Below, piece by piece: positions 20,415 through 41,188 of a stretch of DNA of 64,000 nucleotides. How positions within the stretch are numbered: the first letter of the stretch is position 1; each line of letters opens with the position of its first letter. The notes beneath the pieces were generated by a model that was given only the letters and a program-made list of their open reading frames with translations, ran no database searches and was not told the origin of the DNA. Origin of the DNA: Alphaproteobacteria bacterium (GTDB taxonomy: Bacteria > Pseudomonadota > Alphaproteobacteria > MPNO01 > UBA830); NCBI GenBank assembly GCA_964291215.2, contig OZ219791.1, positions 1,440,001 through 1,504,000 on the forward strand, in the 5' to 3' direction. The position numbers and the translations under genes are program-made.

Positions 20415-20639
20415 CGGCCCCTCCATTCGGCGTACGTCTCTCGCCCGCGTGCGACGCGGGGTGCTGAAAGACATCGCATGGCTCGACGGCATTCGCAAGG
20501 GATCGGCAACAGGATCGCGGCCGATCACGCCTGTTCCAAAGGGTGCAGTTCTCGTATGGCGAATCCAAATCATTGATTTAACGCGGTTGTGCGGTCGCGA
20601 GGCAGCGGCGAAAACGGGTTTTCGTGACTATCGCCCGTT

Positions 20640-21010
20640 TCAGGACAGGATTTTGTCACAACCCCCGCGGCATCGACAGGTGATCCGGGCGCTGCGCCAC
20701 CTTCGCGACACCGTGGCGCCAACGGGCCAACATCGACAGGGAACCGTTCTTCTTCCGCAAGCATCGCCACCGAATGCGCTACCGCGCGCTGAAGCAACCG
20801 GCTCGGGAATTGTCGAGGCGGCAAACAAGACCCTCGTCACACAGCGCATGAAACGCTCCGGCATGCGCTGGCGCATCGTCGGCGGACAATCACCTTCCGC
20901 GCCCTGCTCGAATCCGGCCGCTTCGAGAGCGCGTGGACGGCCATGATCGGTGCAGACGACGTACCAGCCAACGACAACATCAGCCCAAATCACACCCCGG
21001 CACTGGCCGC
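20640..21010 (+). mobile_element. ISKra4-like transposase C-terminal remnant
   Basis: GSGIVEAANKTLVTQRMKRSGMRW..GGQ motif, frameshifted. Confidence 0.7.
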
Positions 21011-21724
21011 ATGAGATGAACAAGTGGTACTGAGCCTGCAACTGTGCCATACGAAACTCCCACCCTTGGACGCTGAAGCTGCTGGCTGGCCGTCTGGTGG
21101 AGATGGAGATCGTCGAGAGCATTTCGAAGGAAACGGTACGGGGGCAATGGTTTGAAGTTGAATTACCTGATGTGTCTTCATGTCGAGATCAGATGTTTTC
21201 GACCCCGTTTGTCCACTTGTGAAGGCCGTGGTGCAACCATTTCGTCAATGTTCCCTATTTGTTTTATGAAGCCGTAGAACTGTCGGGCTTGCGCAGGAGA
21301 TCAGGGAACGCGGCGTCCGGCCACGCCATCGGCGGGTAAGGTAAGGGGAGACGCAAACGATCTTTCCGCGCTCAAGGTAACGGCGCTGGCGCACGACGAC
21401 ATGGCAGCGCTGCACCACGGGATGCGCGGCAAGCCCTGCCCGGACCCGGACAACCGCCAAGTATATGTGCAACTCGCCGACGATCTGCAGCATGGCGCTT
21501 TCGGGCGAACCGCCGCGTCCCTCAAGCAGGTCATGGGCCGTAGCGCGAGCGCCGGTTTCCTCCACCCGCGCTTCGCGCCTCCCGATCACTCCCCGGCCAG
21601 GCCGCGCGGCACGAACTCGCGCCAGCCGCCGTCGGCAAGCGCCTCTGCCTTCGGGACCCAGCGCCGCACCTGCGAGCGCATCCAGCTGTCGGAGGTCCAT
21701 GTCGCTGCCACGTCCTTCTTGCCC

Positions 21725-21900
21725 CCAATGTTGCAGGATATTTTGAATCTTCTATACAGCACTGATTTTACTGGTTTTTCCCGGCCTCCGGCAAATCAAG
21801 CCTGTTTCCAGATAGCGGCCCGAGACCGGATCGATCCGAAACGAGGCGTTGCCGGCTCGCGCATGCCGACAAACGGTCCATCGCCCGAAGGGCATGACGA
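21725..21900. repeat. Conserved ~175-bp non-coding element, copy B
   Basis: Inverted copy of 7754-7929. Confidence 0.92.
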
Positions 21901-22231
21901 TGATTCCGCTGCGGGATGACAACCCGGCCCGTCTCCCGCCGCGCGCGTGAAACGCCGTCGAGTCGTTCGGCGAGCGGACGGACAAGCCGGGACTGGCCGT
22001 ACATCCGCGGACACCGGTCCGAATGCGCCGGGCGGCAATCGTGTGGCGGCCGTGAGCTTCGGAGCGTGCGCATCCGGCGTGTCGGCGGTTCGGGGCAGGG
22101 CTGGCGCGCATGTCCGGGGCGGTGGAAATCCCCTGACCGATCCCTTTGCAAGGCAGGCCGGCGGTCTCCAGAGTGACGCCGGTTGCCGGGCCGTTGCGGG
22201 CGGCGCCGGGAAGGACCTGGAGGAGAGCGGG

Positions 22232-22331
22232 ATGGGCGCGATCGAACCGGAATTCATGGGCACGCGGCATGTGGCGGCGCGGCTCGGGCTCTCGCCCCGC
22301 ACGCTGGGGGCTGCCGGGTGAGCGGGGGCGC
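22232..22331 (+). pseudogene. Excisionase-like HTH remnant, second copy
   Basis: MGAIEPEFMGTRHVAARLGLSPRTL, then frameshift and truncation. Homologous to 557-726. Confidence 0.8.
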
Positions 22332-22511
22332 CCAAAGGGTAGCCAGAACGGCGCAAGCATGAGAAGGAAGAACGACAAGCCTGACTTGACTGCGACCGCC
22401 ACCGTTCCGGTCAATCCCGGCTGACCGAAAACCAGGTGCCCGGAGCCACGCCCAAGGCTGGTCGCGACTTGCCGAAACCCCTGGACAGAATCACTGAAAT
22501 CCGCAATCTTC

Positions 22512-23791
22512 GATTACGCAACCTGATGTCTGGAAATTGTCGAGAAGCTCTCAGTCATCGAGCTGTTCCCATTTGATGTATGCCTTGGTTTCGGTTTCCC
22601 ATTTTTCGTCGATGAGGACCGCGGTTGAGAGGCGCTCCAACGAGGCGAGGTTCGGAAAGACCCTGACTTTGGAGGTGCGCCGCTTGAGCTCTTGCTGGAT
22701 CGGCCGCTCGATACCGTTCGAGGTTCGCATACGTTTGCGGTGAGCATCGGGCAAGGTGAAGACAGCGAGCCCCGCATTCTTTTCCAGCCAGTCTGCGAAG
22801 CCTGGATGCTTGTCGCGATAGCTGGCCACGAGGGCGCCCAGTTCAGCCTCGGCGGTTTGGAGTGAGGACGCATGGCTCCGAGCTGTTTTCCAATACGTTT
22901 CCTGATGTCGTTGTTCGGTGCACGGCGTTTTGCGCCAGGTGGAACTGGCAGCGCTGCCATGTCGCCGCGCCCAGCACCGCGCGTCGTGCCGCTTTCAGCC
23001 CAGCATGGTCATCCGAGACGATGAAGGTCGTACCATGCAGGGCTAGCAAGCTTTCCAGGAAGGCTCTCCAATGGACCTCGGCCTCGGAGAGCGCCACAGA
23101 GAGCCCCAGAACGTGCCTGCAGCCCCTGTTCCGATGGCCGAGAGTACCCCGCGCGACATCGCGCACAACGCCGTCATGGCGGGCTTTTTCGTAGCGCGCA
23201 TCGAGGATCAGGTATTTCATCAGCCCAAGGGGCCGGTTGCGCCAGGCGGCGAGTTCTTCATCGAGCAACCTGGTGGCCCGGCTGACCTGAGAAGAGGACA
23301 GGCTCCCGAACTCGCGCATTACATCCTGCCGTGTGGAAACACCCTTGATGTACATCTCGGCTACGGCGCGAGAAGATCGCTGGCCGCGTTCAAGCGACTG
23401 GGGATAGAACGGGTCGTTCCCGTGACCGTTTGGCACCTGAACGGCAACAGTGGGGGTGTCGATCCGTTTGTAGCCGTTGGCATAGCCCTGTCGCTCCGGC
23501 GTCCGTTCGTAGTGGCCCGCTTTCAAGTACTGCTCGCGCTCGATTTGCATCGCAAGCTCGAAGAGCTGACCAAAGACCCGCCCCAGATCCGTTGCTCCGT
23601 TTGCGATCAGATGTTCCAAAACAGCCTCAATCGTCGTAGTGTGTCGCAGGTCCATTCGCTTCCTCCATGAAGGTTTACAGCTCCATGGGATAGCACGATG
23701 GCGCCGCGTTTCACTGGGGGGCTAGCCCCCCAGTGAAACGCCTCAAAGCGCAAACCTCAGACAAATTTCCAGACATCAAGTTACAGTACCC
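22512..23791 (-). mobile_element. IS256-family element, full span but decayed
   Basis: Transposase 23655 to about 22551 (EMYIKGVSTR, ILDARYEK, SDDHAGL, WQRCQFH). Imperfect TIRs gggtactgtaacttgatgtctggaaatttgtc / gattacgcaacctgatgtctggaaattgtc. Confidence 0.92.
23706..23741. repeat. Perfect 36-bp palindrome in the IS256 5' UTR
   Basis: gcgtttcactggggggctagccccccagtgaaacgc. A second copy near 24518-24552 has one G fewer. Confidence 0.9.
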
Positions 23792-23821
23792 AATCTTTCT
23801 TCGTTGAGGAAAGGAAGAGCA

Positions 23822-24167
23822 ATGCAGGATCTCGCGGAAAGAATACCAGATACTGAACAGTTTCTGGTCCTGGAATCGGAGGAACTCGGCGCAAAGCTGT
23901 TGTTTGTGCTGCGTCAACGGATCAAGAAAGGCGGCAAGTCGGTGCATCTTGGCAATTTCTTGAACGACATGACAGTAACTGGAAACCGCAAACGCGTATC
24001 CGATATTTGGTCCGTCGAGAAATTCGAGAAATCAGAAGAAGAGATAAAGGTCGCCATTTGTGAGGCTTGGGCATGGCTGGAGGCGCAGGGGATGCTCATC
24101 CCGAGCCCTGACATTAATGGCCAACACAGTTTCCGCATCCTGAGTCGACGGGCACATCAATACGAAC
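23822..24167 (+). pseudogene. N-terminal part of a TIGR02391-like protein, truncated by IS30
   Basis: MQDLAERIPDTEQFLVLESEELGAKLL...AICEAWAWLEAQGMLIP...LSRRA. AT-richer DNA than the flanks. Confidence 0.55.
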
Positions 24168-24467
24168 CCCCGTTCCATAGTGAAGTGCAACACATGATGG
24201 GCTATGGCCATGTGTTTTTAGACGCATGATGTTGCGGAGCGGTAGCGGCGAGAGTTCCTGTACAAGATGGAGGGAGCTTGTTCATGTCCAAAGGCTACCG
24301 TCACCTACGAAGAGCGATGCCAGATTGAGGCAGAAAAGCGGTCTTTCACAAGGTGCGATTGCTCGGCAGCTGGGCCGTTCAACAATTTTCCGGGAGATCA
24401 AGCGCAACACCGGGGGACGGGGTTATCGTCACAAGCAGGCGCAAAGGATGGCAGAAACGCGCGTAGT
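24167..24467 (+). mobile_element. IS30-family 5' remnant
   Basis: End sequence ccccgttccatagtgaagtgcaacac; SGLSQGAIARQLGRSTIFREIKRN. Near-identical to 55560-55860. Confidence 0.88.
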
Positions 24468-24800
24468 GGGTACTGTAACTTGATGTCTGGAAATTTGTCT
24501 GAGGTTTGCGCTTTGAGGCGTTTCACTGGGGGCTAGCCCCCCAGTGAAACGCGGCGCCATCGTGCTATCCCATGGAGCTGTAAACATTCATGGAGGAAGC
24601 GAATGGACCTGCGACACACTACGACGATCGGGACTGTTTTGGAACACCTGATCGCAAACGGAGCAACGGATCTGGGGCGGGTCTTTGGCCAGCTCTTCGA
24701 GCTTGCGATGCAAATCGAGCGCGAGCAGCACTTGAAAGCGAGCCACTACGAACGGACACCGGAGCGACAGGGCTATGCCAACGGCTACAAGCGGAACGAC
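24468..24800 (+). mobile_element. IS256-family 5' remnant, divergent from 22512-23791
   Basis: Inverted copy of about 23460-23791; MDLRHTTTIGTVLEHLIANG...GYANGYK. Confidence 0.9.
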
Positions 24801-24994
24801 AATTCCGGCGGGACGGAGAGGTGGTTCCGCTGAGCGGCCTAGGCGAAATGCTTGACGGGCTGTAGCGAAGGACCCTGATCCGGAACCGCGCTCTTCTCCC
24901 AGAATCGGCGCATCCGTGAAGTTGCACCGTCTGCGCAAACGGTGCGATCCGGCCGGCAACCACATCTGAAACCGGCGATGCCGCTCCGGGGTGA

Positions 24995-25915
24995 CTATCC
25001 CGACGGGCGGAAGGGCCGCGCCAGCGATGCAGGGAAGTGGAGCATGAGAATCTGCCGGTTGCGGGAAATGATCACGAGAACCGCGATGGTAGCAAGATAG
25101 GGAAGCGCGGACAGGAGTTGCGAGGGAATCGCAAGGCCAAGCGCCTGGCCCTGCAACTGCAGGATGGTCACGCCGCCGAACAGCCATGCCCCCGCCATCA
25201 CCCGGAACGGCCGCCAGGTCGCGAACACGACGAGTGCGAGCGCGATCCATCCCCGGCCCGCTGTCATATTTTCGACCCAGAGCGGAGTATAGGCAATGGA
25301 CAGATAGGCGCCGCCCAGTCCGGCCATCAGGCCGCCGAACAGCACCGCAAGATAGCGGATTGCGATTACCGAATAACCGATCGCATGCGACGACTGCGGC
25401 GATTCCCCGATGGTGCGGACCACGAGGCCGGACTTGGTGCGATACAGTACCCAGGTGATCACACCGAACAGGATGAAGGACAGGTAGACAAGCGGGTCGT
25501 ACTGGAAGAGCAGTGGCCCGATCACGGGTATGTCGGCAAGGATGGGAATATGAAACGCCGACAGTGCTTCGACCGGGGTGCTGCCGAAGCCGCGCCCGAT
25601 CGAGGCCGAGACGCCGGAGCCGAAGATCGTCAGCGCTAGTCCCGCCGCGTACTGGTTGGTCATGAAGGTCAGCGCGAGGATGCCGAAGATCAGGGACGCT
25701 GCCGCGCCCGCCGCCGCCGCCGCCGCTATCGCCACCGACATGGGAAATCCCGCAAACGACACCCATACCGCCACCGCCGCACCGATAAGCATCATGCCCT
25801 CGATGCCAAGATTGACGACCCCCGACTTTTCGACAACGAGCTCGCCGAGAGCTGCGAATATCAGCGGCGTCGCGGCAATCACCGTTCCCGTAAATATGGC
25901 GGTGAACAGGTCCAT
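24995..25915 (-). CDS. Nucleoside/purine (CUT2-type) ABC transporter permease
   Basis: ATPLIFAALGELVVEKSGVVNLGIEGMML, GRGWIALALVVFATW, ALPY. Confidence 0.92.
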   Translation of the reverse strand: MDLFTAIFTGTVIAATPLIFAALGELVVEKSGVVNLGIEGMMLIGAAVAVWVSFAGFPMSVAIAAAAAAGAAASLIFGILALTFMTNQYAAGLALTIFGSGVSASIGRGFGSTPVEALSAFHIPILADIPVIGPLLFQYDPLVYLSFILFGVITWVLYRTKSGLVVRTIGESPQSSHAIGYSVIAIRYLAVLFGGLMAGLGGAYLSIAYTPLWVENMTAGRGWIALALVVFATWRPFRVMAGAWLFGGVTILQLQGQALGLAIPSQLLSALPYLATIAVLVIISRNRQILMLHFPASLARPFRPSG

Positions 25916-25920
25916 GGGCT

Positions 25921-26997
25921 TTAGCGTCCCGCAAGCTTGATGCGATAGAAGATGAGGAAATCGGCAGCCAGCAGGAAGAACAGCAGCATGCCCTGGAATA
26001 TCCGTGTCAGTGACGACGGCATGCCCAGGCTCAACTGGACCGCTTCGCCGCCAAGATAAAGGAGCGCCAGCAGCAGCCCGCCGAACACGATTCCGAACGC
26101 GTTCAGGCGGCCGATGAATGCGACGATGATGGCGGCGAACCCGTATCCCGGAGAAATCTGCGGCGACAGTTGCCCGAGCGGACCCGCTGCCTCGGCCATG
26201 CCGGCAATGCCGGCGGCCGCGCCGCCGATGAGAAGGCCGAACCAGATCGAAGCCGAGTCCGAGAAACCCGCATAGCGCGCCGCCGCCGGCGCCTCGCCAC
26301 TGACCGCCATCTGGTAGCCAAGAAAACTGCGGCCGCTGAAGATCCACATCGCGAATACTGCGACCACGGTGATGAAGATCGAACCGTTGACACGGTAGGC
26401 GCCATGCAGCGGATCGAACATGGCCGTCGGCGGCAGGAGTGCCGTCTGCGGGTAGTTGAATCCGGCCGGATCGCGCCACGGCCCGTGAACCAGATAGGAG
26501 AGCAACAGCGTCGCCACGTAGGTGAGCATCAGGGTGACAAGTATCTCGTTGGTGTTGTAGCGATCGCGCAGAAATGCCGGTATCGCCGCCCACAGCATTC
26601 CGCCGGCCATGCCAGCGACCAGCATCAGGGGAAGGACCGCCGCGCTTTCGCGGTCGGGGAAGAAGAGGCCCACCCCCGTCGCCATGATGGCGCCGATTAC
26701 GAGTTGCCCCTCGGCCCCGATATTCCAGACATTGGCGCGAAACCCGATCGCGAGCCCAAGCGCGATCAGGATCAGCGGCGACGCCTTCAGAAGCAGTTCC
26801 GAGACCCCGTTGAGAGAACTCACCGGTTCGACGAAAAACGCCTCGAACGCGGCCACCGGGTCATGACCAAGTGCGGCAAACAGGATCGAGCCGCACAGAA
26901 TCGTGAGCGCGGTCGCCATCACGGGCGCGGCGATCCGCATCGTCGCCGAAGGTTCGGTGCGCCGATCGATGACCGGCCAGAGCGGAAGAGCTCCCAT
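25921..26997 (-). CDS. Nucleoside/purine ABC transporter permease
   Basis: FRANVWNIGAEGQL, NEILVTLMLTY, GYGFAAIIVAFIGRL. Confidence 0.92.
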   Translation of the reverse strand: MGALPLWPVIDRRTEPSATMRIAAPVMATALTILCGSILFAALGHDPVAAFEAFFVEPVSSLNGVSELLLKASPLILIALGLAIGFRANVWNIGAEGQLVIGAIMATGVGLFFPDRESAAVLPLMLVAGMAGGMLWAAIPAFLRDRYNTNEILVTLMLTYVATLLLSYLVHGPWRDPAGFNYPQTALLPPTAMFDPLHGAYRVNGSIFITVVAVFAMWIFSGRSFLGYQMAVSGEAPAAARYAGFSDSASIWFGLLIGGAAAGIAGMAEAAGPLGQLSPQISPGYGFAAIIVAFIGRLNAFGIVFGGLLLALLYLGGEAVQLSLGMPSSLTRIFQGMLLFFLLAADFLIFYRIKLAGR

Positions 26998-27005
26998 CGA
27001 ACGCC

Positions 27006-28538
27006 TCAGGCCCGGGCGCGGGTCATGAGAAGCCCGACTTCCTCGTAAGTCGTCTGCCCGCGCTCAAGCGAGCGCGACAGCGAGCCTTCGCACATGACCA
27101 GGATCCGGTCGCAGATCTCGAACAACTCGTCGAGCTCCTCCGAGATCACGAGGATTGCCGCTCCCGTCCGGCTGATATCGATGAGAGTCTGGCGTATGTA
27201 TGCCGCCGCGCCGACATCGACGCCCCAGGTTGGCTGCGACACCAGAAGGATGCCGGGCCGCAGCTCGATCTCACGCCCCACAATGTACTTCTGGAGGTTG
27301 CCGCCCGACAAACTCTGGGCGAGGCTGTTGACGCCGTTGGTCCGGACATTAAACTTCTCGATGACGTTGCCGGCATATCCCCGCGCGCGACGGCGGTCCA
27401 CCAGGCCGCGCCGTATCATGCCGGTCCGGTGACCGGTAAGGATCGCGTTCTCGCTGAGCTGGTGGGGCGGAACGGCGCCGCGGCCAAGCCGTTCCTCGGG
27501 CACGAACGCAAATCCGAGCCGCCGCCGCCGCCCTGCACCGAGATGGGCAACGGGCTTTCCGAACATACTTATCGCGTCAGGCGTGGCATTTAGCGTCCGC
27601 TCTCCGCTCAGCAGGCCGGCAAGCTCAGCCTGGCCGTTGCCCGATATGCCGGCAATCCCGACGATCTCTCCGCCGAAGACCTCGAAAGAGACATCTGCGA
27701 TGCGGGTGCCGAACCGGTCGGCGGGCTCCGCCGACAGGTTCCGCACCTTGAGGACCGGCTCTGCGCTGCGTTCCGCAGGCTCTGCGTGAGTCTCGGGAAG
27801 CTCGGTTCCGACCATCAGCCGCGCGATGTCCTCCGTCGAGGCAGCCCGGGGATCGACCGTGCCGACAACCCTGCCGTTCCTCAGCACCGTCGCGGTGTCG
27901 CAGAGTTCCTGCACTTCATGCAGCTTGTGGCTGATGTAGAGGATGCTGCATCCCTCGCCAGCCAGCTGGCGAAGCGTCTCGAACAGCCGCGGCACGGCCT
28001 GCGGCGCCAGCACCGATGTGGGCTCGTCGAGAATCAGCAGGCGCGGGCTCTGAAGCAGGCAGCGCACGATCTCGACGCGCTGGCGTTCACCGACCGAAAG
28101 CGTGTGGACCAGCCGCCCGGGATCGATCGGCAGGCCGTAGCGCTCGGACACTTCCGAGATCTTCCCCGAGAGCGCGTCGAGGTCGAACCTGCCCCCGACC
28201 GAGAGCGCGATGTTCTCGACCACGGTGACCGATTCGAACAGCGCGAAATGCTGGTAGACCATCTCGATGCCGAGCGCACGCGACACCGCAGGGTTGTGGG
28301 CGCGGATCGGTTCGCCGTCGCACAGGATTTCCCCCTCGTCGGCAAGCACGGCGCCGTAGATGATCTTCATCAGGGTGCTCTTGCCGGCGCCGTTCTCGCC
28401 GAGCACCGCATGGATCTCGCCCGGCATGACGGACGCAGAAATCCCGTCATTGGCGACGACGCCGGGATAGCGCTTGCGGATGCCGCGCAGTTCCAGCCGT
28501 GGAATCATGTCTGCGAACCGGCGCCCGGACCCGGTCAT
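27006..28538 (-). CDS. ABC transporter ATP-binding protein (tandem domains, CUT2)
   Basis: GENGAGKST, LSVGERQRVEI, ILDEPT, LSGGNLQK, QPTWGVDVGA. Confidence 0.93.
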   Translation of the reverse strand: MTGSGRRFADMIPRLELRGIRKRYPGVVANDGISASVMPGEIHAVLGENGAGKSTLMKIIYGAVLADEGEILCDGEPIRAHNPAVSRALGIEMVYQHFALFESVTVVENIALSVGGRFDLDALSGKISEVSERYGLPIDPGRLVHTLSVGERQRVEIVRCLLQSPRLLILDEPTSVLAPQAVPRLFETLRQLAGEGCSILYISHKLHEVQELCDTATVLRNGRVVGTVDPRAASTEDIARLMVGTELPETHAEPAERSAEPVLKVRNLSAEPADRFGTRIADVSFEVFGGEIVGIAGISGNGQAELAGLLSGERTLNATPDAISMFGKPVAHLGAGRRRRLGFAFVPEERLGRGAVPPHQLSENAILTGHRTGMIRRGLVDRRRARGYAGNVIEKFNVRTNGVNSLAQSLSGGNLQKYIVGREIELRPGILLVSQPTWGVDVGAAAYIRQTLIDISRTGAAILVISEELDELFEICDRILVMCEGSLSRSLERGQTTYEEVGLLMTRARA

Positions 28539-28578
28539 GGCGCCCCGCCGTGCGGGGCGCCATGGACACGTCGAGAGT

Positions 28579-29667
28579 CTAGCCGAGCTTGCCGATCATG
28601 CCGGCAACGAACCAGTCGAACTTGCGAATGTCGGGATTGGACAGGACGCCGCCCTTGGCGACCCGCACCTTGCCCGCCTGGTCCTTGATCTCGCCGGCAT
28701 AGGGATGAAGCTTGCCGTTCCTGATCGACTTCTCGGTTGCCGCCAGCTTAGCGCGGACATCGGCGGGAATGGCATTGTTGTAGGGCGACATTCTGACGAC
28801 GCCCTCGGCAAGGCCCTGCCATCTGACCGTGGACTTCCACGTTCCGGCCGCAACCGCCTTGGCAGCGGCAACATAGACGCTGCTCCAGTCGAGCATGAAG
28901 GCCGTGAGATGGGTCTTGGGCGCGAACTTCGCCATGTCGCTGGCATAGCCGACCGACCAGGCTCCCTTCTCGCCGGCTACCTGGACGCCGGTGGCAGTAT
29001 CCGTCATCGAGCAGATGACGTCGCAACCTTGGGAAATCAGCGTGTTGGTCGCCTCCTTCTCCTTGCCCGGATCGAACCACGAATTCAGGAAGATCGCGCT
29101 GCAGGTGATCTTGGGATTGACGCTCTGGGCGCCGAGAAGCAGGGCATTCGCCGGACCGACGATATCGGGAATCGGGAAACCGCCCACAAAGCCGATCTTC
29201 GCGGCCTTGGACACGTGCCCCGCGGCCACGCCGGCGACATAGGTGCCCTCGTAGTACTTGGCCTCGAACGTACCGAGATTCGGAAGATGGACGATTCCCG
29301 AGCAGTGCTCAAAGGCGACCTTCGGAAAGCGCGGCGCGACCTTCTGCATCGGCGTGCCGTGCGAGAAACTGGTCCCGAAGATGAGCTGGTGTCCGTTGCT
29401 CGCCAGCTGCCGGAAGACGCGCTCGGCGTCCTGGGGCTTGAAGATGTTGTCGATGACGGTGATCTTGACCTTGTCGCCGAGCGCCTCCCGGATCGCGTCG
29501 ACGCCGAGGCTGTGCTGCTTGGTCCAGCCGATTTCGGACACCGGCGAAACATAGACGACCCCGACCCTCAGCGGGTCGGCAGCAACGGCATGGGACGCAA
29601 GGCCGGTGCTAACTAGCGCAGAACCGGCGGCGGCCATGAATTCACGGCGTGTCGTTGACAGTTTCAT
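28579..29667 (-). CDS. BMP-family (purine/nucleoside) substrate-binding protein with Tat signal
   Basis: TRREF Tat motif; IFGTSF, YYEGTYVAGVAAG, GFVGGFPIP, NSWFDPGKE. Confidence 0.9.
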   Translation of the reverse strand: MKLSTTRREFMAAAGSALVSTGLASHAVAADPLRVGVVYVSPVSEIGWTKQHSLGVDAIREALGDKVKITVIDNIFKPQDAERVFRQLASNGHQLIFGTSFSHGTPMQKVAPRFPKVAFEHCSGIVHLPNLGTFEAKYYEGTYVAGVAAGHVSKAAKIGFVGGFPIPDIVGPANALLLGAQSVNPKITCSAIFLNSWFDPGKEKEATNTLISQGCDVICSMTDTATGVQVAGEKGAWSVGYASDMAKFAPKTHLTAFMLDWSSVYVAAAKAVAAGTWKSTVRWQGLAEGVVRMSPYNNAIPADVRAKLAATEKSIRNGKLHPYAGEIKDQAGKVRVAKGGVLSNPDIRKFDWFVAGMIGKLG

Positions 29668-29984
29668 TTGGGCCTCCACTTTGTCTTGTTGCGGGCTTCC
29701 TCGAACGGTCCGTGGCGGATCCGCTGCCGGTCGGACCTGCAGCCGGCCCCGCCCGTCCCGCGCCATCGCTCTCGGGAACGGACGGAGTCCGATCATCAGT
29801 CTTATAGCCGCCAAACCCCGGCAATGACAGATGCTGCACGAGCTGATTCCGCCATCGAGCCAATCCCGTCCACCGGGTTCTCCACAGGCAGCGTTCCGCC
29901 GCACCAAGCCAATGCCTCTGCGCTTGAGTTAGGAAGGATCCCGCAACATAATCCCGCAGCCTACCCCAGCACCGGAACGCAGGC

Positions 29985-30839
29985 ATGGATCTCGCATCGA
30001 ACGCAGGACTGTTTGCGGATTGGCACGTGGTCGCCGACCTTGAGAACCTCCGCCAATCCGGCAGCCACGAGACACGGCTGTTCGGAGAGCATCTTGCGAT
30101 ATCGCGACCCGGCGACGGTTTTCCCGCCGTCGTTCTTGCCGGCGGGAAAACCGTCGCGGCACAGGAGAAGTACGGCTTCGTCTGGGCGAGCCTCGGAGAG
30201 CCGGCTGCCGACATCATCGATATCCCCGAAGCGGAAGAGGGCGACCGCCATATCGTGACCGGGGGCTCGATCGCCGTCCACGCATCGGGATTGCGGGTGG
30301 TCGAGAACTTTCTCGACATGGGGCATTTTCCGTTCGTGCATGCTGGCTGGCTCGGCACCGAGCCGCACACCGAGGTTCCCGCCTACGAGGTTGCCTTCGC
30401 CGGAGACGACCAGATTCTGGCGACCGACTGCAGGTTCTTCCAGCCGGTCGCCTCGCCGACCGCAGAGAGCGGCTTCATGGTCGACTACGTCTACCGCGTG
30501 TTCCGACCCTACAGCGTCGCCCTTTACAAGAGCAACCCGACGCAGCCGGACCGCAAGGACTTCATCGCCCTGTTCGTCCAGCCGGTCGACGAGGAACGCT
30601 GCGTCGCCCATCCGTTCCTGTGCTATCTGATGGACGGAATCGACTGCGCCACGGTGCGCTGGTTCATGCAGTTGATCTTCGCCCAGGACAAGCCGATCCT
30701 CGAGAACCAGCTTCCGAAGAAGCTGCCGCTTGACCCGCGCACCGAGACTCCCGTCCGGGCCGATGCCGTCTCGGTGTCCTACCGGCGCTGGCTGCGGGAC
30801 CGGCGGGTAAGCTACGGCGCCGTTCCGCAGGCGGTCTGA
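29985..30839 (+). CDS. NdmC-like N-demethylase catalytic subunit (Rieske-less oxygenase domain)
   Basis: Mononuclear Fe motifs ENFLDMGHFPFVH and QDKPILENQ; no CxH...CxxH Rieske motif. Confidence 0.8.
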   Translation: MDLASNAGLFADWHVVADLENLRQSGSHETRLFGEHLAISRPGDGFPAVVLAGGKTVAAQEKYGFVWASLGEPAADIIDIPEAEEGDRHIVTGGSIAVHASGLRVVENFLDMGHFPFVHAGWLGTEPHTEVPAYEVAFAGDDQILATDCRFFQPVASPTAESGFMVDYVYRVFRPYSVALYKSNPTQPDRKDFIALFVQPVDEERCVAHPFLCYLMDGIDCATVRWFMQLIFAQDKPILENQLPKKLPLDPRTETPVRADAVSVSYRRWLRDRRVSYGAVPQAV

Positions 30840-30843
30840 AGCC

Positions 30844-31755
30844 ATGGCCGCAGAACACGCATCCCGCACGCCCGAAAAGGGCGCCATAGCCGAACCCGCA
30901 TGCGCGGATCCGGTCGTGCTTGACCTGTGGCATGCAATCGGCGCAGTGGACGAGGCGTCAGAAGTGCAGCACACGGAACTTCTGGGCCAGCCGCTGTCAT
31001 ACCGGATCGACGCAAGTGGGACTCCCCGGGTTCGGCCGCATGGCGATCCGGGAGATGGTGCCGCCCTGCCGGCATGCACCGCCTACGGCTATGTCTGGTG
31101 CAGTCTCGGCACGCCTGCGAGCGAGCTGTTTCCGATTCCGGAATATGAGGAAAAGGATCGTCGCAACCTCAACGCCGCGAGCATCGGCGTGCACGTGTCA
31201 GCACCGCGCGCGATCGAGAATTTTCTCGACCTCGGCCATTTCCCATTCGTGCATACCGGCATCCTCGGCGTCGAACCGCACACCGAGGTCAGGGAATACC
31301 GGGTCGAGGTCAGCGACGACAACCGTGAGATCGTCGCCACGAACTGCATGTTCTATCAGCCAAGGGCGGCGCCAACGTCGGAGTTCGGAGCGGATGTCGA
31401 ATACGTATACCGGGTGCCCCATCCCTTCTGTTCGGTGCTCTACAAGTCGAGCCCTCTCGATCCGGAGCGCATGGACATCATCGCTCTTTTCTGCCAGCCC
31501 CTCGACGAGCAGCGCACCCGCGCCCACATGCTTCTCAGCATCCTTGACGAGGACAACGAAGACCGCGAGATCCGGGCGTTCCAGCAGATGATATTCGGCC
31601 AGGACAAGCCGATTCTGGAAAACCAGTATCCGAAGAAGCTGCCGCTCGATCCGTGCGCGGAGACCCCGATCCGGGCCGACAAGTCAGCCATCTTCTACCG
31701 CCGCTGGCTGAGCCAACTCGGACTGACCTACGGCGTGGTCCCGGCCTCGTCATGA
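30844..31755 (+). CDS. Second NdmC-like Rieske-less oxygenase subunit
   Basis: ENFLDLGHFPFVH and QDKPILENQ; paralogous to the upstream gene; no Rieske motif. Confidence 0.8.
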   Translation: MAAEHASRTPEKGAIAEPACADPVVLDLWHAIGAVDEASEVQHTELLGQPLSYRIDASGTPRVRPHGDPGDGAALPACTAYGYVWCSLGTPASELFPIPEYEEKDRRNLNAASIGVHVSAPRAIENFLDLGHFPFVHTGILGVEPHTEVREYRVEVSDDNREIVATNCMFYQPRAAPTSEFGADVEYVYRVPHPFCSVLYKSSPLDPERMDIIALFCQPLDEQRTRAHMLLSILDEDNEDREIRAFQQMIFGQDKPILENQYPKKLPLDPCAETPIRADKSAIFYRRWLSQLGLTYGVVPASS

Positions 31756-33563
31756 GCACCGCGGGCGCAACCCCCGACCCCGGAGCCGTCTGGGCCGACA
31801 TGGCCGGCGCGGATCCCGCGCGGGCGTGGCATCCTGTAGCGGCCGTGCATGACCTTCCCTACCGGCACGTCTTTCATGGCCAGCTGCTGGGACGCGAGCT
31901 TGCGATCTGGCGCGCCGACGACGGCTATGTGAACGCTTGGGAGAACCGCTGCCTGCATCGCGGCGTGCGCCTTTCCATCGGCGTCAATGATGGCCGCGAA
32001 CTCAAGTGCCAGTATCACGGCTGGCGCTACGCCAACCGGACGGCGGGCTGCACCTACATCCCCGCCCACCCGGCCGACGCGCCGGCGCGGACGATCTGCA
32101 ACCGCACGTTTCCGGCGGTCGAACGCCACGGACTGGTATGGTCGGGCGAAGCGCCCGAAGGCGATGTCCCCGACCATTGCGGGTTCGCGGAGCCGCTGGC
32201 GCTGCGCGGCATCGCCGTCAACGCGCCTCCGGCTCTGGTCGCAGAGCATCTCGCCGGATACCGGTTCCTGCCGTGCGGACGGCTCGACGCCGACGACGCC
32301 GACATCGATGCCACCGTCGTTTCTCCCTGGGCCGTTCGGCTGAACGCCTCCGTCGACGGCAATTCGACCGGCCTTCTGCTCCTGGTGCAGCCGGTGGATT
32401 CGCATCGCTCCGTGATTCGCGGGGTGGTCGACCGGGGCGGCGGCGGTGCGCCGGACAGCGCAATCCTGCGCCACCACAACGGACGCCTTGGGGCATTGCG
32501 CGACGTCATCGAGAGCGAGGCTGCGAAACTGGAGATGCCGGAGCCGCTGGAACCGACGGTCGAACGGTTGTCGCCTGACCTCGCGGGAATCCCGGAACCC
32601 CCGAAAGGCGGCCGGCAGGCGGCGCTCCGCGTCGAGGTGGCGCGGAAATGGCGCGCTGCCGAGGGCATAAGCGGCTTTCGTCTGGTTCCGGTCTCGGGCA
32701 TCCTGCCGACGTTCCAGCCCGGGGCCCATGTCGACGTTCACATGCCGAACGGCCTGATCCGGCAGTATTCCCTCGTCAATGGTCCTGGCGAGACCGACGG
32801 GTTCGTCATCGGCGTGAAGCTCGAGCCCGAGTCGGCAGGCGGCTCGCTGTGCATGCACGAGGCGGTGCGCGAGGGTGACGTGCTCGCGGTCTCCGAGCCG
32901 CGGAACAATTTCACGCTGCGCCGAGACGCAACGCGCTCGCTCCTGATCGCCGGCGGCATCGGGATCACGCCGCTCCTGTCGATGGCGCGAACGCTCGATC
33001 ACGGCGACCTCGGGTACGAACTTCACTATTTCGTGCAGAACGAGGAACAGATCGCGTTCCGCGACATCCTCGATGGCCTCGGCGACCGGGTCCGCCTGCA
33101 TCTCGGCCTCGGGGCAGCCGAAACGAGTGCGGCCCTCCGCCGTCTACTTGCCGACCGCGAGGATCGCATGCATGTCTATCTCTGCGGTCCAGGACCGATG
33201 CTGGAGGCGGCGAGGAGCGCCGCCGAACAGCAGGGTTGGCCCGACAAGGCGGTGCATTTCGAGTATTTCGCAAATCCCAACGAGATCGATGACCGTTCGT
33301 CCTTCGAGATCGACCTTGCGCGCTCGTGCCTGACGCTCAATGTGCCGGCCGGCAGGACGATCCTCGAAATCCTGCGCGAGAACGGCGTCGATCTTCCCTC
33401 GTCCTGTGAACAGGGAGCGTGCGGAACGTGCGCTGTCCCGGTCCTCGAGGGGCAACCGGACCACCAGGACGTCTATCTGAGCGATGCGGAAAAAGCCGCC
33501 GGCGACCGTATCATGACCTGCGTCTCGCGTACCGGATCCGACCGGCTCGTACTCGATATCTGA
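31752..33563 (+). CDS. ndmD: NdmD-like reductase: N-terminal Rieske domain, flavin/NAD-binding domain, C-terminal plant-type [2Fe-2S]
   Basis: CLHRG...CQYHGW; RQYSL; AGGIGITP; YLCGP; SCEQGACGTC...C. ATGA overlap with the upstream gene. Confidence 0.8.
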   Translation: MSTAGATPDPGAVWADMAGADPARAWHPVAAVHDLPYRHVFHGQLLGRELAIWRADDGYVNAWENRCLHRGVRLSIGVNDGRELKCQYHGWRYANRTAGCTYIPAHPADAPARTICNRTFPAVERHGLVWSGEAPEGDVPDHCGFAEPLALRGIAVNAPPALVAEHLAGYRFLPCGRLDADDADIDATVVSPWAVRLNASVDGNSTGLLLLVQPVDSHRSVIRGVVDRGGGGAPDSAILRHHNGRLGALRDVIESEAAKLEMPEPLEPTVERLSPDLAGIPEPPKGGRQAALRVEVARKWRAAEGISGFRLVPVSGILPTFQPGAHVDVHMPNGLIRQYSLVNGPGETDGFVIGVKLEPESAGGSLCMHEAVREGDVLAVSEPRNNFTLRRDATRSLLIAGGIGITPLLSMARTLDHGDLGYELHYFVQNEEQIAFRDILDGLGDRVRLHLGLGAAETSAALRRLLADREDRMHVYLCGPGPMLEAARSAAEQQGWPDKAVHFEYFANPNEIDDRSSFEIDLARSCLTLNVPAGRTILEILRENGVDLPSSCEQGACGTCAVPVLEGQPDHQDVYLSDAEKAAGDRIMTCVSRTGSDRLVLDI

Positions 33564-33570
33564 AGCGGCA

Positions 33571-34218
33571 ATGGCTCTCACGCTCTACGATTACGAACTG
33601 TCGGGGAACTGCTACAAGCTGCGTCTCCTGATGAACATTCTCGGAGTGGACTACGTCACGGTCCCGATCGACTTCTATCCGGGCCGGGAACACAAGTCTA
33701 CGGAATTCCTTGAGAAGAATCCGCTCGGGCAGTTGCCCGTGATCGATGACGACGGTTTGGTGCTGCGCGATGCTCAGGCCATCCTCGTCTATCTCGCCTC
33801 GAAGTTCGATCCGTCGGAGCAGTGGTATCCGGTCGGAGATGTCCGGCTTCTCGGCGAAGTCAGCCAATGGCTGGCATTCGCCGACGGCATCACCGCGACA
33901 TCTTCCGCAGCGCGGCTGCATGACGGCCTATTCTACGACTTCGACATCGAGGCCTGCCGCTCGGAAGCACATCGGCTGTTCCGGATCCTCGACGAGCAAC
34001 TGTGGTTTTCGGAGGCCGAGAATTCGGGCTGGATCTGCAGCGCCCGGCATCCGACGATCGCAGACATCGCCTGTTTCCCTTACGTGATCCTCTCGGAGGA
34101 GGGCGGCATCTCCCGGCAGGACTATCCGGCCATCCGGCGGTGGACAGACCGGATGAAGCGCATTCCGGCCTTCGTCGTGATGCCTGGCGTCTTTCCTGCC
34201 GGGCCCGACCGGACCTGA
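33571..34218 (+). CDS. Glutathione S-transferase-like protein (NdmE-like)
   Basis: LYDYELSGNCYKLRL, NPLGQLPVI, DAQAILVYLA, PTIADIACFPY. 7 bp after the ndmD-like gene. Confidence 0.85.
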   Translation: MALTLYDYELSGNCYKLRLLMNILGVDYVTVPIDFYPGREHKSTEFLEKNPLGQLPVIDDDGLVLRDAQAILVYLASKFDPSEQWYPVGDVRLLGEVSQWLAFADGITATSSAARLHDGLFYDFDIEACRSEAHRLFRILDEQLWFSEAENSGWICSARHPTIADIACFPYVILSEEGGISRQDYPAIRRWTDRMKRIPAFVVMPGVFPAGPDRT

Positions 34219-34404: not shown

Positions 34405-35490
34405 ATGACCGACGGAAAGCTTGAGAGACTGATCGGCCATGCGCCGGTCAAGGACCTCCGGATCGCACGCGGCGGTTCCGGACTGACCGGTCCCGGCATG
34501 TCATTGCCCGGCGAAGGCTCCGTGCTCGTGATCTCGACCCGGTCGCAGAGCGCCGCCGCGAAGAGGATCATCGGACGACTCGGCCCGCGGTTTGGCGCAT
34601 GGATAGGCGAAGCGGTTATGCATGTTCCCGAAGCCGACGCAGATCGGGCCGTAGAACTGGCGTCGCAGTGCGGCGCCGGAAACGTGATCGCGATCGGTGG
34701 CGGCTCGGCTATCGGCCTCGCCAAGGCCGTCGCCCTTCGGAAGACCGTCGCCATCGTCGCGATCCCGTCGACTTATTCCGGATCCGAGATGACGGACATC
34801 TGGGGAATTACGCAAAAGGCGGGCAAGGTCACCGGACGGGACACACGCGTCGTGCCGGCGGTGGCAATCTATGACGCCGAGTTGATGCGAACACTGCCGC
34901 CGACAATCGCCGGGCCGAGCGGCATCAACACGATCGCCCACTCGGTCGAGGCGCTCTACGCCCAGAACGGGACCCAACTGCTTTCGGAAATCGCCGAGGA
35001 AGGCATCAAGCGGATGGCGGCGGCGCTCCGGGTGATCTGCGGGCCCGGGCGCGAGACCGACGCTCTGGAGCCAGCGCTCGACGAGGCAATCCTCGGCACC
35101 ATCCTTTGCGGAAGCGCACTGGCAAAGGCGACGATGGGCATACATCACAAATTGTGTCACGTCCTCGGCGGAACCTTCGGCCTGCCGCACGCGGAAACCC
35201 ACACCGTGATCCTCTCCCATGCAGCGGCCTACAACAGCGAGGCCGCGCCGGAGGCCATGGACGCCATATGCCGCGCGCTCGGTTCTGATTCCGCGCCCGC
35301 GGGCCTTCAGGAACTCGCACGCGAGGTCGGCGCACCGACCAGTCTCAGCGACATAGGCTTCAAGGAACGAAATCTCGACCGGGCTGCTGACATCGCAACA
35401 GAATCGCCGTATTACAACCCGCGTCCCGTCGATCGTGGCAGCGTCCGCGCTCTGCTCGACGACGCGTTTCATGGACGGGATGCAGCCTGA
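34405..35490 (+). CDS. Maleylacetate reductase-like iron-containing alcohol dehydrogenase
   Basis: AVMHVP, GGGSAIGLAKA, PSTYSGSEMT, HHKLCHVLGGTFGLPHAETH, YYNPRP. Confidence 0.88.
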   Translation: MTDGKLERLIGHAPVKDLRIARGGSGLTGPGMSLPGEGSVLVISTRSQSAAAKRIIGRLGPRFGAWIGEAVMHVPEADADRAVELASQCGAGNVIAIGGGSAIGLAKAVALRKTVAIVAIPSTYSGSEMTDIWGITQKAGKVTGRDTRVVPAVAIYDAELMRTLPPTIAGPSGINTIAHSVEALYAQNGTQLLSEIAEEGIKRMAAALRVICGPGRETDALEPALDEAILGTILCGSALAKATMGIHHKLCHVLGGTFGLPHAETHTVILSHAAAYNSEAAPEAMDAICRALGSDSAPAGLQELAREVGAPTSLSDIGFKERNLDRAADIATESPYYNPRPVDRGSVRALLDDAFHGRDAA

Positions 35491-35522
35491 AGGCGTGTTC
35501 GAAACCCGGGAGATCAAAAGAC

Positions 35523-35987
35523 ATGGCCGAAGCCAGACCGAAGACCGAAATCACCATGAGGATGTCCGCCAGCTGCCCGCACCACGCGCGGAGCGATATC
35601 AGCGTGCGGGACCTTGAAAGCGTGATTGACGAACCAGCCGAACGCGGCGGCACCAATCTCGGCCTCACGCCCACCGAGACTCTGATCGCATCGCTCATCG
35701 GCTGCACGAACGTCATCACGCAGCGGATCTCGGAAGGTTACGGGCTTCACATCGATGCCATGAACATCGACGCCCAGGCGCAATTCGACCGGCGCGGCGT
35801 CATGCTCCAAGAAGAGGTCGGTGTGCCGTTCCCGGAGATCACGCTGACGATCTCGATCACGACTCCGGATGCGGCTGCGGATTTCGACAAAGTCCGCGCC
35901 GATCTTGGAAAGTTCTGTCCGATCGCCAAGGTGATCCGCCAGTCGGGCACCGTCATCAACGAGAACTGGGAGATTTCCGTGTCCTGA
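35523..35987 (+). CDS. OsmC/Ohr-like family protein
   Basis: IDEPAERGGTNLGLTPTETLIASLIGC...FCPI. Confidence 0.85.
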   Translation: MAEARPKTEITMRMSASCPHHARSDISVRDLESVIDEPAERGGTNLGLTPTETLIASLIGCTNVITQRISEGYGLHIDAMNIDAQAQFDRRGVMLQEEVGVPFPEITLTISITTPDAAADFDKVRADLGKFCPIAKVIRQSGTVINENWEISVS

Positions 35988-36018
35988 ACCGGCGCGGAAA
36001 CTCCGCCCGCAACGATCC

Positions 36019-36654
36019 GTGGAAGATGACATGGTACGGATAACACCGGTTGTGCGCGAGAACGCGCCAGAGCTCGAGGATGTCTTCCAGCACGCGGAAA
36101 AGGCGCTCGGTTTCGTGCCCACCAGCTTCTTCGCCATGTCCCGGGCCCCCGACATTCTCAGCGCCTTCACGCGACTGTCGCGGGAAGTGATCGGAATACC
36201 CGGCACGGTTCCGCTGCCGCTCAAGCGCATGGTCGCCTACATGGCCAGCCGCTCCGCTGGCTGCCAGTACTGTTCGGCGCACACCGCCGAGTCGGCCGCT
36301 GCCGTCGACGGCGTGGCGCCGGAGAAGATCGCCGCGATCTGGAGCTATGAGACGAGCCCGCTCTTCGACGAGGCGGAACGGGCCGCGCTGCGGATGGCTC
36401 AGGGGGCCGGTGCCTCTCCCAATGCGGTCTCGGACGACGATTTCGACGACCTCCGGAAGCATTTCGACGACGATCAGATCGTCGAACTCGTTGCCGCTGT
36501 CTGCCTGTTCGGCTGGCTCAATCGCTGGAACGACACCATTGCGACGGATCTTGAGGAGCGGCCGCTCGAATTCGGCCTGGCGAACCTGACCGGAAGCGGG
36601 TGGACGCCCGGCAAGCACGCGCCCATCGACGACCGCCGGGAGACGCGCTCTTGA
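36019..36654 (+). CDS. Carboxymuconolactone decarboxylase/AhpD-like protein
   Basis: LGFVP, SAGCQYCSAH, FDEAERAAL, FGWLNRWND. Confidence 0.85.
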   Translation: MEDDMVRITPVVRENAPELEDVFQHAEKALGFVPTSFFAMSRAPDILSAFTRLSREVIGIPGTVPLPLKRMVAYMASRSAGCQYCSAHTAESAAAVDGVAPEKIAAIWSYETSPLFDEAERAALRMAQGAGASPNAVSDDDFDDLRKHFDDDQIVELVAAVCLFGWLNRWNDTIATDLEERPLEFGLANLTGSGWTPGKHAPIDDRRETRS

Positions 36655-37493
36655 ACCACACGCCACGCGAGGGCCCCCAGGGTCCGGACGCCTACCCGTC
36701 CCTTGACGGCCGGTCGGTCATCGTGACCGGCGGCGGCCAGGGGTTGGGGCGGAGCATGGCGCTCGCCGAACGCGGTGCCAACGTCACCATCGCCGTGGCA
36801 CGCGAGACCGAGACGCTCGACAATACTGTCAACGACGCGGCTGGGCTTCCCGGCACCGTCCAGGGCATCCGAGGAGATATCCGGAGTCCCGGAGACTGCG
36901 CCGATATCGTCCGCTTCGCCCTGGACAGCTTTGGACGCATCGAGGCACTGGTAAACAACGCCGCACGCGGCACCTACTACGTGAGCGAAGCCGCCGGCGG
37001 TAGGGGAGCCAGGTTCTGGGAGGCGGACCGCGACCGCTGGGCGGAAGCGCTGACCATCAACGTCATCGGCACGTTCCACATGACGGCGGCCGCAGCGCCC
37101 CACATGACGGCGCAGGCATTCGGCCGCATCGTCAACGTTTCGACCAGCGACCGGTCGATGGTCCGCCCGACCAACACGCCCTACGGTCCTTCAAAGGCGG
37201 CGCTCGAATCCATGAGTAAGGCGTGGGCCGGGGAGATCGAGGAACATGGCGTGACCGTGAACATCCTGCTGCCGGGAGGGGCGGCGGATACACGGATGGC
37301 GACCGGGGTGACCCGCAGGCCGCTTCTTCCCGCGGGCATCATGAACGCGGCAATTCTGTGGCTGTGCTCGGACCGGTCGGGCGGCCATACCGGCGGCCGC
37401 TATATCGGCGAGGACTGGGACACGGGCGCGGAACCGGACGACGCCGCATCGGGAGCCCGCCAGCCATCGCACGATCTGCCGGCGATCATGTAA
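36651..37493 (+). CDS. Short-chain dehydrogenase/reductase
   Basis: TGGGQGLG, LVNNAA, YGPSKAALE. TTG start overlapping the upstream stop. Confidence 0.82.
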   Translation: MNHTPREGPQGPDAYPSLDGRSVIVTGGGQGLGRSMALAERGANVTIAVARETETLDNTVNDAAGLPGTVQGIRGDIRSPGDCADIVRFALDSFGRIEALVNNAARGTYYVSEAAGGRGARFWEADRDRWAEALTINVIGTFHMTAAAAPHMTAQAFGRIVNVSTSDRSMVRPTNTPYGPSKAALESMSKAWAGEIEEHGVTVNILLPGGAADTRMATGVTRRPLLPAGIMNAAILWLCSDRSGGHTGGRYIGEDWDTGAEPDDAASGARQPSHDLPAIM

Positions 37494-37514
37494 CCCGAAA
37501 CGCCCGGCCCGATC

Positions 37515-37838
37515 CTACCGGACGGTGGATTTCTCGGTGGGCGTGATCCGCGTCACGACCATGGCGTCGCGGTCAAGCATCTCGGGAAGACGTGGAGCGA
37601 TATCGTTCTTCCAGAAATCGCTCTCGTATACCGCTTCGTAGAGCCTTTCGCGCTCGGCCTCGCTCTCGAAACGCCGCAGCCAGATATAGACCGAGTCGTC
37701 CGCCTCGCCGCGGAAGCTCCCGCAGATGACGGCGCCCTTGGAGACTTGGAACGGGATAATCTCGTTCTCCATGACCTGCAGCCATTGATCCATCTTGCTG
37801 GGACGGACCTTGTACTGGCGAAGTTCGTAGAATGACAT
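37515..37838 (-). CDS. NIPSNAP family protein
   Basis: MSFYELRQY...YIWLRRFESEAERERLYEAVYESDFW. Confidence 0.85.
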   Translation of the reverse strand: MSFYELRQYKVRPSKMDQWLQVMENEIIPFQVSKGAVICGSFRGEADDSVYIWLRRFESEAERERLYEAVYESDFWKNDIAPRLPEMLDRDAMVVTRITPTEKSTVR

Positions 37839-40300: not shown

Positions 40301-40481
40301 GACGCCTGGCCCTGCCGTTCCGAGAGCGGCGCCGCCACGCCGCGTTGCAGGCCCGGCTCTTGGGAGGTCGATGTCGACATTTCGGAACGGCGGATATTGA
40401 CGTCGGGCGACGATGCCCGCACTATCGATTCCGGCATGCGCAGGCACGGTCGGCGCGGCGGAAACGGGGAGGAGGGGAACC

Positions 40482-41096: not shown

Positions 41097-41188
41097 ACGC
41101 AGGCGAGCGGGCGGCAGGGGTCCGCACTGTCCCGCCCGGCGTGGCTGGGTTATATTAGGCGCTCGTCAAGCCGATGCGATGATGACAC

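Follow-up and report, generated by a model that had tools for sequence, protein, structure and literature searches.

Two Rieske-less oxygenase subunits beside one NdmDE-like pair: a candidate two-headed N-demethylase system for mono-methylated purines

NdmCDE is the 7-methylxanthine N7-demethylase of Pseudomonas putida CBB5 (PMC4408171, PMC10380055, citing Summers et al. 2013). It has so far passed for a curiosity of caffeine breakdown, and homologues of it in rhizobia have carried the label 'function unknown' since 2013. An operon of this type, with two catalytic genes, lies in a 64,000-nucleotide stretch of the genome of an Alphaproteobacteria bacterium (GenBank assembly GCA_964291215.2, contig OZ219791.1, positions 1,440,001 to 1,504,000; hereafter the window). 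The locus raises the question of what two Rieske-less oxygenase subunits, here termed C1 and C2, would do beside a single Rieske-reductase fusion (D), a single glutathione S-transferase (GST)-fold protein (E) and a divergent ABC importer with a BMP-family binding protein (Table 1). The operon is genuine: an intact, conserved system of NdmCDE type in two-headed form. Judging from sequence, we think it somewhat probable that C1 and C2 would be N-demethylase heads which can replace one another on a single D/E scaffold and act on two different mono-methylated purines supplied by the importer.

A preliminary description of this DNA had reported four tightly coupled genes, two paralogous oxygenase subunits that keep their iron ligands and lack the Rieske motif, a third gene joining a Rieske domain to a flavin/NAD reductase and a [2Fe-2S] ferredoxin, a GST next to it, and a BMP-family transporter on the opposite strand. 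All of this is borne out by the open reading frame (ORF) coordinates, by Pfam and by motif columns in homologues. The spacing from C1 to E is a 4 bp gap, a 4-bp ATGA overlap and a 7 bp gap. C1 and C2 are 50% identical and share the motifs ENFLD(M/L)GHFPFVH and QDKPILENQ; in both, Pfam recognises the catalytic domain VanA_C only, without a Rieske domain (C1 has in addition a sub-threshold KshA_C match), and NCBIfam offers no named family for either. D contains Rieske (residues 26-108), NAD-binding (398-488) and Fer2 (527-593) domains, and E a GST domain. Ratios of nonsynonymous to synonymous substitution (dN/dS) against two same-genus genomes are 0.07-0.29 for C1, C2, D, E and the BMP protein, with C1 and C2 at 0.11-0.29. 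These values, and the recurrence of the same arrangement in most of 80 related loci, argue that the layout is not due to chance.

The related loci come from a GTDB scan that returned at least 552 relatives, the best 80 of which by similarity to C1 were kept. A synteny survey of the kind suggested in the preliminary description found C2 adjoining C1 in 77/80, a long D match in 77, E in 78, and an orthologous BMP protein and a divergent GntR regulator in 71 each; two of the loci are cut by contig ends and one counted D is frameshifted. As the gene order is shared among kin, these counts reflect conservation and not independent origins. The host itself has no convincing GntR remnant in the 317-bp intergenic region and, with the queries used, no GntR orthologue elsewhere in its genome. 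Many homologues of both C1 and C2, at 60-70% identity, occur in Mesorhizobium and related genera, and the carriers include many soil and marine bacteria, among them legume symbionts, plant-associated rhizobia and the marine genera Ruegeria, Hoeflea and Pelagibius. A sample of 301 genomes of a rhizobial family gave a C-type match in 61 and a C2-type gene in 16. Fourteen of these 16 (the centre genome included) have an adjoining partner at 48-54%; another carries two C2-like genes, and the last a single gene. The two-C form appears patchy outside rhizobia and roseobacters, because a class-wide sample gave a C-type match (E<=1e-60) in only 7/400 other genomes, none of them tandem. An early reading of the operon as a genus-specific oddity was ruled out by the homologue search and the GTDB scan.

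Sinorhizobium meliloti 1021 carries the module on pSymA in the order BMP-GntR<>C1-C2-D-E (locus L001; NC_003037.1 ~825,909-832,313), with C1 and C2 orthologues 63-64% identical to those of the window and an E orthologue at 77%. We take the corresponding locus tags to be SMa1500-1509. SMa1507 features in an acid-stress proteomics study, the consulted portion of which does not address substrates (PMC4941405).

To which family do C1 and C2 belong? The CF1 genes of Paraburkholderia caffeinilytica (CdnC and its neighbours; plasmid p1, 174.6 kb, locus L003) were used as a stand-in for the CBB5 NdmC sequence, this plasmid being said to carry complete demethylation genes (PMC10380055). C1 is 47.6% and C2 44.3% identical to CdnC, while D and E are 39% and 62% identical to their CF1 counterparts; identities of C1 and C2 to NdmA/B-type genes are 26-29% and to HpxD 26-31%. 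In a 41-row FastTree phylogeny, which carries a long-branch warning at its root, C1 and C2 fall together with CdnC and a Rhizobium-type group into a single Rieske-less clade (support 99). Its neighbours are NdmA/B-type and HpxD rows, and this wider group is separate from 11 VanA-like proteins of the host (support 100), one of which was checked and is closest to dicamba O-demethylase. From a separate quick tree, eight HpxD-like rows that lack the anchoring motif were left out. C1 and C2 group with NdmC/CdnC, as the preliminary description had proposed, and not with O-demethylase-like proteins. Searches against solved structures place SxtT and GxtA first by both sequence and fold, followed by NdmA/B, with dicamba and guaiacol O-demethylases lower by fold and negligible or missing by sequence; phmmer at E<=1 lists no DdmC match for either C1 or C2.

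Neither subunit has the complete Rieske architecture or the grouping of VanA/DdmC-type enzymes, and neither combines Rieske centre and iron site in one chain served by a separate phthalate-dioxygenase-reductase (PDR)-type reductase, as HpxD and SxtT/GxtA do. What is found instead is the NdmCDE pattern of a Rieske-less C with an iron site, a Rieske-reductase fusion, an adjoining GST and grouping with NdmC/CdnC. Within the Rieske-less clade, C1 (support 99) and C2 with its offshoots (94-97) form separate clades, and neither lies inside the CdnC clade. By these comparisons C1 and C2 are matches to NdmC at family level. The likeness to NdmCDE described earlier therefore stands for architecture and family grouping, with orthology and a shared activity no more than putative. 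The C1/C2 pair did not arise by local duplication; it is old and widely distributed. A recent local duplication of C had been considered, and the sister relation of the window's two genes that it predicts was rejected (approximately unbiased (AU) test, p 7e-6). For the branching order, p-AU is 0.56 for C1 with C2 and 0.50 for C1 with NdmC, and C2 with NdmC has support 25.

If both C proteins lack a Rieske centre, D is the evident place to look for one. Profile comparison finds the N-terminal 266 residues of D homologous to C1 and C2 (probability 91 and 96). The C proteins keep the frame of a Rieske domain without its cluster-binding part; in the N-terminal half of D (approximately residues 20-285) the Rieske motif is intact, the helix-grip domain is shrunken and the iron motif is missing. 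A structure model of D (pLDDT 79, low over the cluster-binding stretch) aligns with complete Rieske oxygenase subunits over 224 residues (SxtT: Z 17.5, root-mean-square deviation 4.1), and residues 126-241 of the model match helix-grip folds at Z ~10. On this modelling, the N-terminal half of D appears to be a degenerate oxygenase pseudo-subunit that has kept the cluster and lost the iron site, and so is complementary to C.

The module probably operates like NdmCDE in its chemistry. By analogy with that enzyme and with Rieske oxygenases in general, electrons would pass from NADH through flavin and a plant-type [2Fe-2S] cluster to the Rieske centre of the D pseudo-subunit, and from there via a bridging Asp to the iron of C1 or C2. 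An O2-dependent hydroxylation of the N-methyl group would follow, with release of formaldehyde. FrmA/FrmB would take up the formaldehyde, and GuaD/XdhB the xanthine or guanine that is formed. As the reported stoichiometry of NdmCDE is 3:3:3 (PMC10380055), each D pseudo-subunit could feed one C, and C1 and C2 could fill the three positions singly or mixed. The host genome also encodes at least 15 complete or near-complete VanA_C-type Rieske oxygenases, and a tblastn search of it found no close PDR-type reductase besides D; D might serve these other oxygenases too.

Clues to the reaction come from neighbouring genes. frmA, encoding formaldehyde dehydrogenase, is found on the same strand as E, downstream of it, in 35/80 loci from several genera (26 of the 55 with at least 1.5 kb of room), and frmB is present in 13/80; the frmB of one locus, taken as an example, and the frmA of the host pass NCBIfam cut-offs. 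These genes point to formaldehyde release. A guanine-deaminase-family gene is found in 4/80 loci, and also in L007, L141 and L146, HpxD-like oxygenases in five and an adenosine-deaminase-like gene in three. The deaminase of locus L049 passes TIGR02967 and not NF006679, which marks it as a divergent paralogue. Host frmA is located ~45 kb upstream of C1, with guaD and xdhB elsewhere in the genome, all three above NCBIfam cut-offs. The purine and demethylation setting envisaged in the preliminary description is thus seen in related loci, in frmA/frmB, guanine deaminase and the purine-type binding protein.

The nearest solved relatives of that BMP protein are AtzT, which holds guanine, and 3S99, in which adenine was modelled. 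AtzT binds guanine with a Kd of ~110 nM and also binds a triazine (PMC6834077). Its aromatic sandwich (Tyr45/Trp194) and Ser97/Phe98 contacts are kept as W, W, S and F in 70/70 BMP orthologues. Four other contacts are changed, E165D, N169P, N218M and N220D, and these too are fixed in 70/70, so that the guanine-edge contacts Glu165, Asn218 and Asn220 are replaced by Asp, Met and Asp. The residues suggest a protein compatible with a modified base, and point to a ligand that is different from guanine or modified.

It is here that the alternative which survives best has to be considered, namely demethylation of N- or O-methylated non-purine heterocycles such as methylated pyrimidines, pteridines, pyridones or guanidine alkaloids. 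The frmA/frmB linkage would suit it equally, as it indicates formaldehyde release only, and so would the changed AtzT contacts, given that a triazine is accepted by AtzT; moreover, SxtT and GxtA, the best structural matches, act on a guanidinium alkaloid. We nevertheless regard it as unlikely, as CdnC/NdmC stands nearest among relatives with a reported function, and genes for guanine deaminase, adenosine-deaminase-like and HpxD-like proteins are found repeatedly next to the module.

Do both heads look active, and do they differ? Columns were read from the top matches of each search, 119 homologues of C1 type and 120 of C2 type. The CxH...CxxH motif is present in none of them (0/119 and 0/120), the iron triad in 119/119 and at least 119/120, and the bridging Asp in 118/119 and 119/120. 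Pocket residues were mapped through HMMER alignments, with numbering offsets derived in this analysis; as a control, the alignment recovers N/F versus Q/L for the NdmA/B-type pair of CF1. Equivalents of NdmA F168, F174, V285 and F286 are essentially identical in the C1 and C2 clades, and in both the F223 equivalent is Tyr and the L248 equivalent Ile. The column of NdmA N282/NdmB Q289, a demonstrated switch of regiospecificity (bioRxiv 10.1101/2021.12.17.472166), holds Met in 119/119 C1 proteins, Gln in 120/120 C2 proteins and Gln in CdnC. At SxtT Met255, a reported selectivity determinant (PMC7293229), Pro is found in 114/119 C1, Met in 116/120 C2 and Thr in CdnC, and at SxtT Gln226 Val in 115/119 C1 and Ser in 111/120 C2. 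Both C1 and C2 look catalytic, and their predicted pockets are different.

The same columns bear on a second alternative, that one or both subunits hydroxylate a ring carbon of a purine-like base with HpxD- or SxtT-like chemistry. None of the NdmA/B/C-type rows examined has a match for Met228 and Pro210 of the C1 pocket, the wider tree group also takes in HpxD-type rows, and the precedence of SxtT/GxtA in sequence and fold is as this alternative would have it. Co-oriented frmA/frmB in many genera, however, are not expected for pure hydroxylation, and identity to CdnC (44-48%) is far above that to HpxD. This alternative, too, is therefore improbable, and ranks behind demethylation of a non-purine ring.

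If N-demethylation of purines is accepted, which purines might be involved? No NdmA/B orthologue was found in the host genome, where the best matches are <=35% identical and mostly cover the Rieske domain; the absence of NdmA and NdmB that the preliminary description noted in the window thus extends to the whole genome. Nor was one found in five other carrier genomes (best matches 30-32% in 2/5, no match in 3/5). The host therefore lacks the ndmA and ndmB genes that characterise a caffeine N-demethylation cluster, and the operon is not one.

A compact pathway for plant methylxanthines (theobromine, theophylline or caffeine), in which C1 and C2 take the place of NdmA and NdmB, has little to recommend it and comes third among the alternatives. 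Two regiospecific heads could take off successive methyl groups, many carriers are plant-associated rhizobia, and an NdmA/B heterohexamer has been described for sequential demethylation (PMC9939785, PMC10380055). Against this, NdmCDE is reported to be specific for mono-methylated 7-methylxanthine (PMC10380055), and coffee and tea alkaloids would not be expected for legume symbionts or marine carriers such as Ruegeria, Hoeflea and Pelagibius.

Modifications at N1 and N7 of purines are common in RNA. Given these modifications and the absence of NdmA/B, RNA turnover, rather than caffeine, may be the likely source of methylpurines. Speculatively, C2, with Gln as in CdnC and NdmB, would take 7- or 3-methylxanthine or -guanine, and C1, with Met, would take another position such as N1. 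A bolder proposal, which we put forward tentatively and consider rather doubtful, is that many Alphaproteobacteria use the module to recycle ring-N-methylated purines from RNA turnover (e.g. 1-/7-methylguanine or -xanthine), which would make it the missing general route for this purpose. A catalytically dead Rieske pseudo-subunit on the reductase would take swappable heads (C1, C2 and sometimes a third), and caffeine N7-demethylation would be a late offshoot.

The relation between the two heads is illuminated by loci that have only one. C2 alone is present in L002 (where C1 has a ~660 bp deletion), L007, L141 and L143, and C1 alone in L093, L109 (with a C2 remnant) and L123; these loci retain D and E genes. 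L099 and L114 have a swapped gene order. The loss of either C gene from loci that retain D and E favours interchangeable heads over an obligate heteromer. The earlier suggestion of two subunits on one D/E scaffold thus gains from the different pockets, and its variant of an obligate C1-C2 hetero-oligomer is disfavoured. Such a heteromer, a single enzyme with one mainly structural subunit, is the least likely of the alternatives: tandem occurrence in 77/80 loci and in 14/16 C2-type genomes speaks for it, but all catalytic ligands are kept in both proteins, and C1-only, C2-only and swapped-order loci exist beside one genome with two C2-like genes.

Further variants were observed. A third catalytic paralogue, C3, with His/Ile/Leu in its pocket, lies upstream of a different BMP-ABC importer in L088 (3803-4741), L115, L117 and L121; serine hydroxymethyltransferase is encoded nearby, making a three-headed version with one-carbon capture. 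Genome G711 (L145:5197-6063, L146:4811-8470) has two Rhizobium-type Rieske-less subunits, each followed by an amidohydrolase, and one of them by a guanine-deaminase-like gene as well; a free Rieske pseudo-subunit and a GST, one gene each, are encoded between the two. Similar pairs, ~15 kb apart, occur in the 301-genome rhizobial sample. Within the window's own family, L031-L037 hold a single-C system of free Rieske pseudo-subunit, C and GST, without a fused reductase, divergent from a distant complete Rieske oxygenase. On Klebsiella and Acinetobacter plasmids, ndm-like genes are flanked by insertion sequences, as ndmB-like-C-D-E in L006 and with a distant complete oxygenase and frmR/frmA in L134.

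Several points weigh against interchangeable purine N-demethylase heads. In the literature read, no activity is reported for any member of the C1 or C2 clade. The closest solved structures are ring hydroxylases, ahead of NdmA/B, and the tree tests do not settle the branching order of C1, C2 and NdmC. The 80 loci are kin, picked by similarity to C1. The single-C loci could be decaying, as one has a frameshifted D and another is without the reductase half of D. frmA is missing from 45/80 loci, the window included, formaldehyde also arises from O-demethylation, and purine-catabolic neighbours are rare (guaD 4/80, HpxD-like 5/80). Finally, with four AtzT contacts changed, the BMP ligand may not be a purine.

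Table 1. Positions of the two-headed operon and its divergent importer in the window
Feature	Position	Strand	Details
C1, Rieske-less mononuclear-iron oxygenase subunit	29985..30839	+	284 aa; His114, His119, Asp235; bridging Asp111; pocket Met228/Pro210/Val178
C2, second Rieske-less oxygenase subunit, separate clade	30844..31755	+	303 aa; His132, His137, Asp254; pocket Gln247/Met229/Ser197
D, NdmD-like Rieske-reductase fusion	31752..33563	+	603 aa; phthalate-dioxygenase-reductase-type flavin/NAD/[2Fe-2S] module
E, NdmE-like GST-fold protein	33571..34218	+	215 aa
BMP/PnrA-family solute-binding protein	28579..29667	-	Pfam Bmp
ABC ATPase	27006..28538	-	two ABC_tran domains
ABC permease 1	25921..26997	-	BPD_transp_2
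ABC permease 2, last importer gene, ends 24995	24995..25924	-	BPD_transp_2
Divergent intergenic region, 317 bp	29668..29984	.	without GntR gene; one weak sigma-70-like site 29924-29952 (+)

The start of bmp is placed at the ATG at 29667, which has a ribosome-binding site; a TTG at 29907 gives a longer mechanical ORF. Downstream of E, positions 34414-37838 encode Fe-containing alcohol dehydrogenase-like, OsmC-like, CMD/alkylhydroperoxidase-like and SDR proteins, which are common to the same-genus genome G001 only and lie outside the conserved module. On the importer side, 20500-24960 is an insert missing from the syntenic locus of G001 (L029). It contains a broken insertion-sequence-like element (~22510-23790) with at least 39 further matches in the host genome at 90-96% identity, a number that suggests heavy expansion of insertion sequences. 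Further along, at 40413-42511, a glyoxalase/VOC-family gene is followed by a complete ring-hydroxylating Rieske alpha subunit.

The two-headed form, together with its importer, regulator and formaldehyde genes, provides a concrete hypothesis, testable in the model strain S. meliloti 1021 and in an existing growth assay with E. coli guaB. Should it hold, a gap in the bacterial disposal of methylated purine bases would be filled, new regiospecific N-demethylases would become available for methylxanthine biocatalysis, and the architecture of NdmCDE, the structure of which is unsolved (PMC13237722), would be explained as complementary degeneration of duplicated Rieske subunits.

How does the module compare with known systems? 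A Rieske oxygenase divided over two polypeptides is also found in the chlorophyllide a oxygenase of Micromonas (PMC9615114), which differs in substrate and lineage, and for which the portion of the source consulted describes no reductase fusion or GST partner. SxtT and GxtA (PDB 6WN3/6WNC) resemble C1 and C2 as a paralogue pair with selectivity at residue 255, but they and the HpxD xanthine hydroxylase are complete Rieske subunits that hydroxylate ring C-H bonds without D/E partners, at ~25-31% identity. The alpha3-alpha'3 heterohexamer of NdmA and NdmB (PDB 6ICK/6ICL) likewise comprises paralogous oxygenases of different regiospecificity on one NdmD, and differs at the same pocket column; unlike C1 and C2, NdmA and NdmB carry their own Rieske clusters and need no GST.

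According to a 2015 review, clusters homologous to ndmCDE, of unknown function, occur in 18 organisms, most of them Sinorhizobium or Mesorhizobium (PMC4408171, citing Summers 2013), and these very likely are the same loci as the two-headed module. The operon is thus already in print in a single-C form, while no characterisation of its two-C form came to light: full-text literature searches, the scope of which excluded subscription papers and supplements, did not turn up a paper in which an operon with two NdmC genes is characterised. The part of the review consulted is silent on a second catalytic gene, on the importer and formaldehyde genes and on a substrate. The module differs from NdmCDE itself in having two catalytic genes from separate ancient clades and no ndmA/ndmB. 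The pockets, Met228/Pro210 in C1 and Gln/Met in C2, differ from the Gln/Thr of CdnC, and the dedicated BMP-ABC importer sets it apart from CF1, the binding protein of which is only 38% identical. What it shares with NdmCDE is a Rieske-less iron subunit, a Rieske-reductase fusion and a GST in the order C-D-E, with GntR and frmA/frmB nearby in its relatives.

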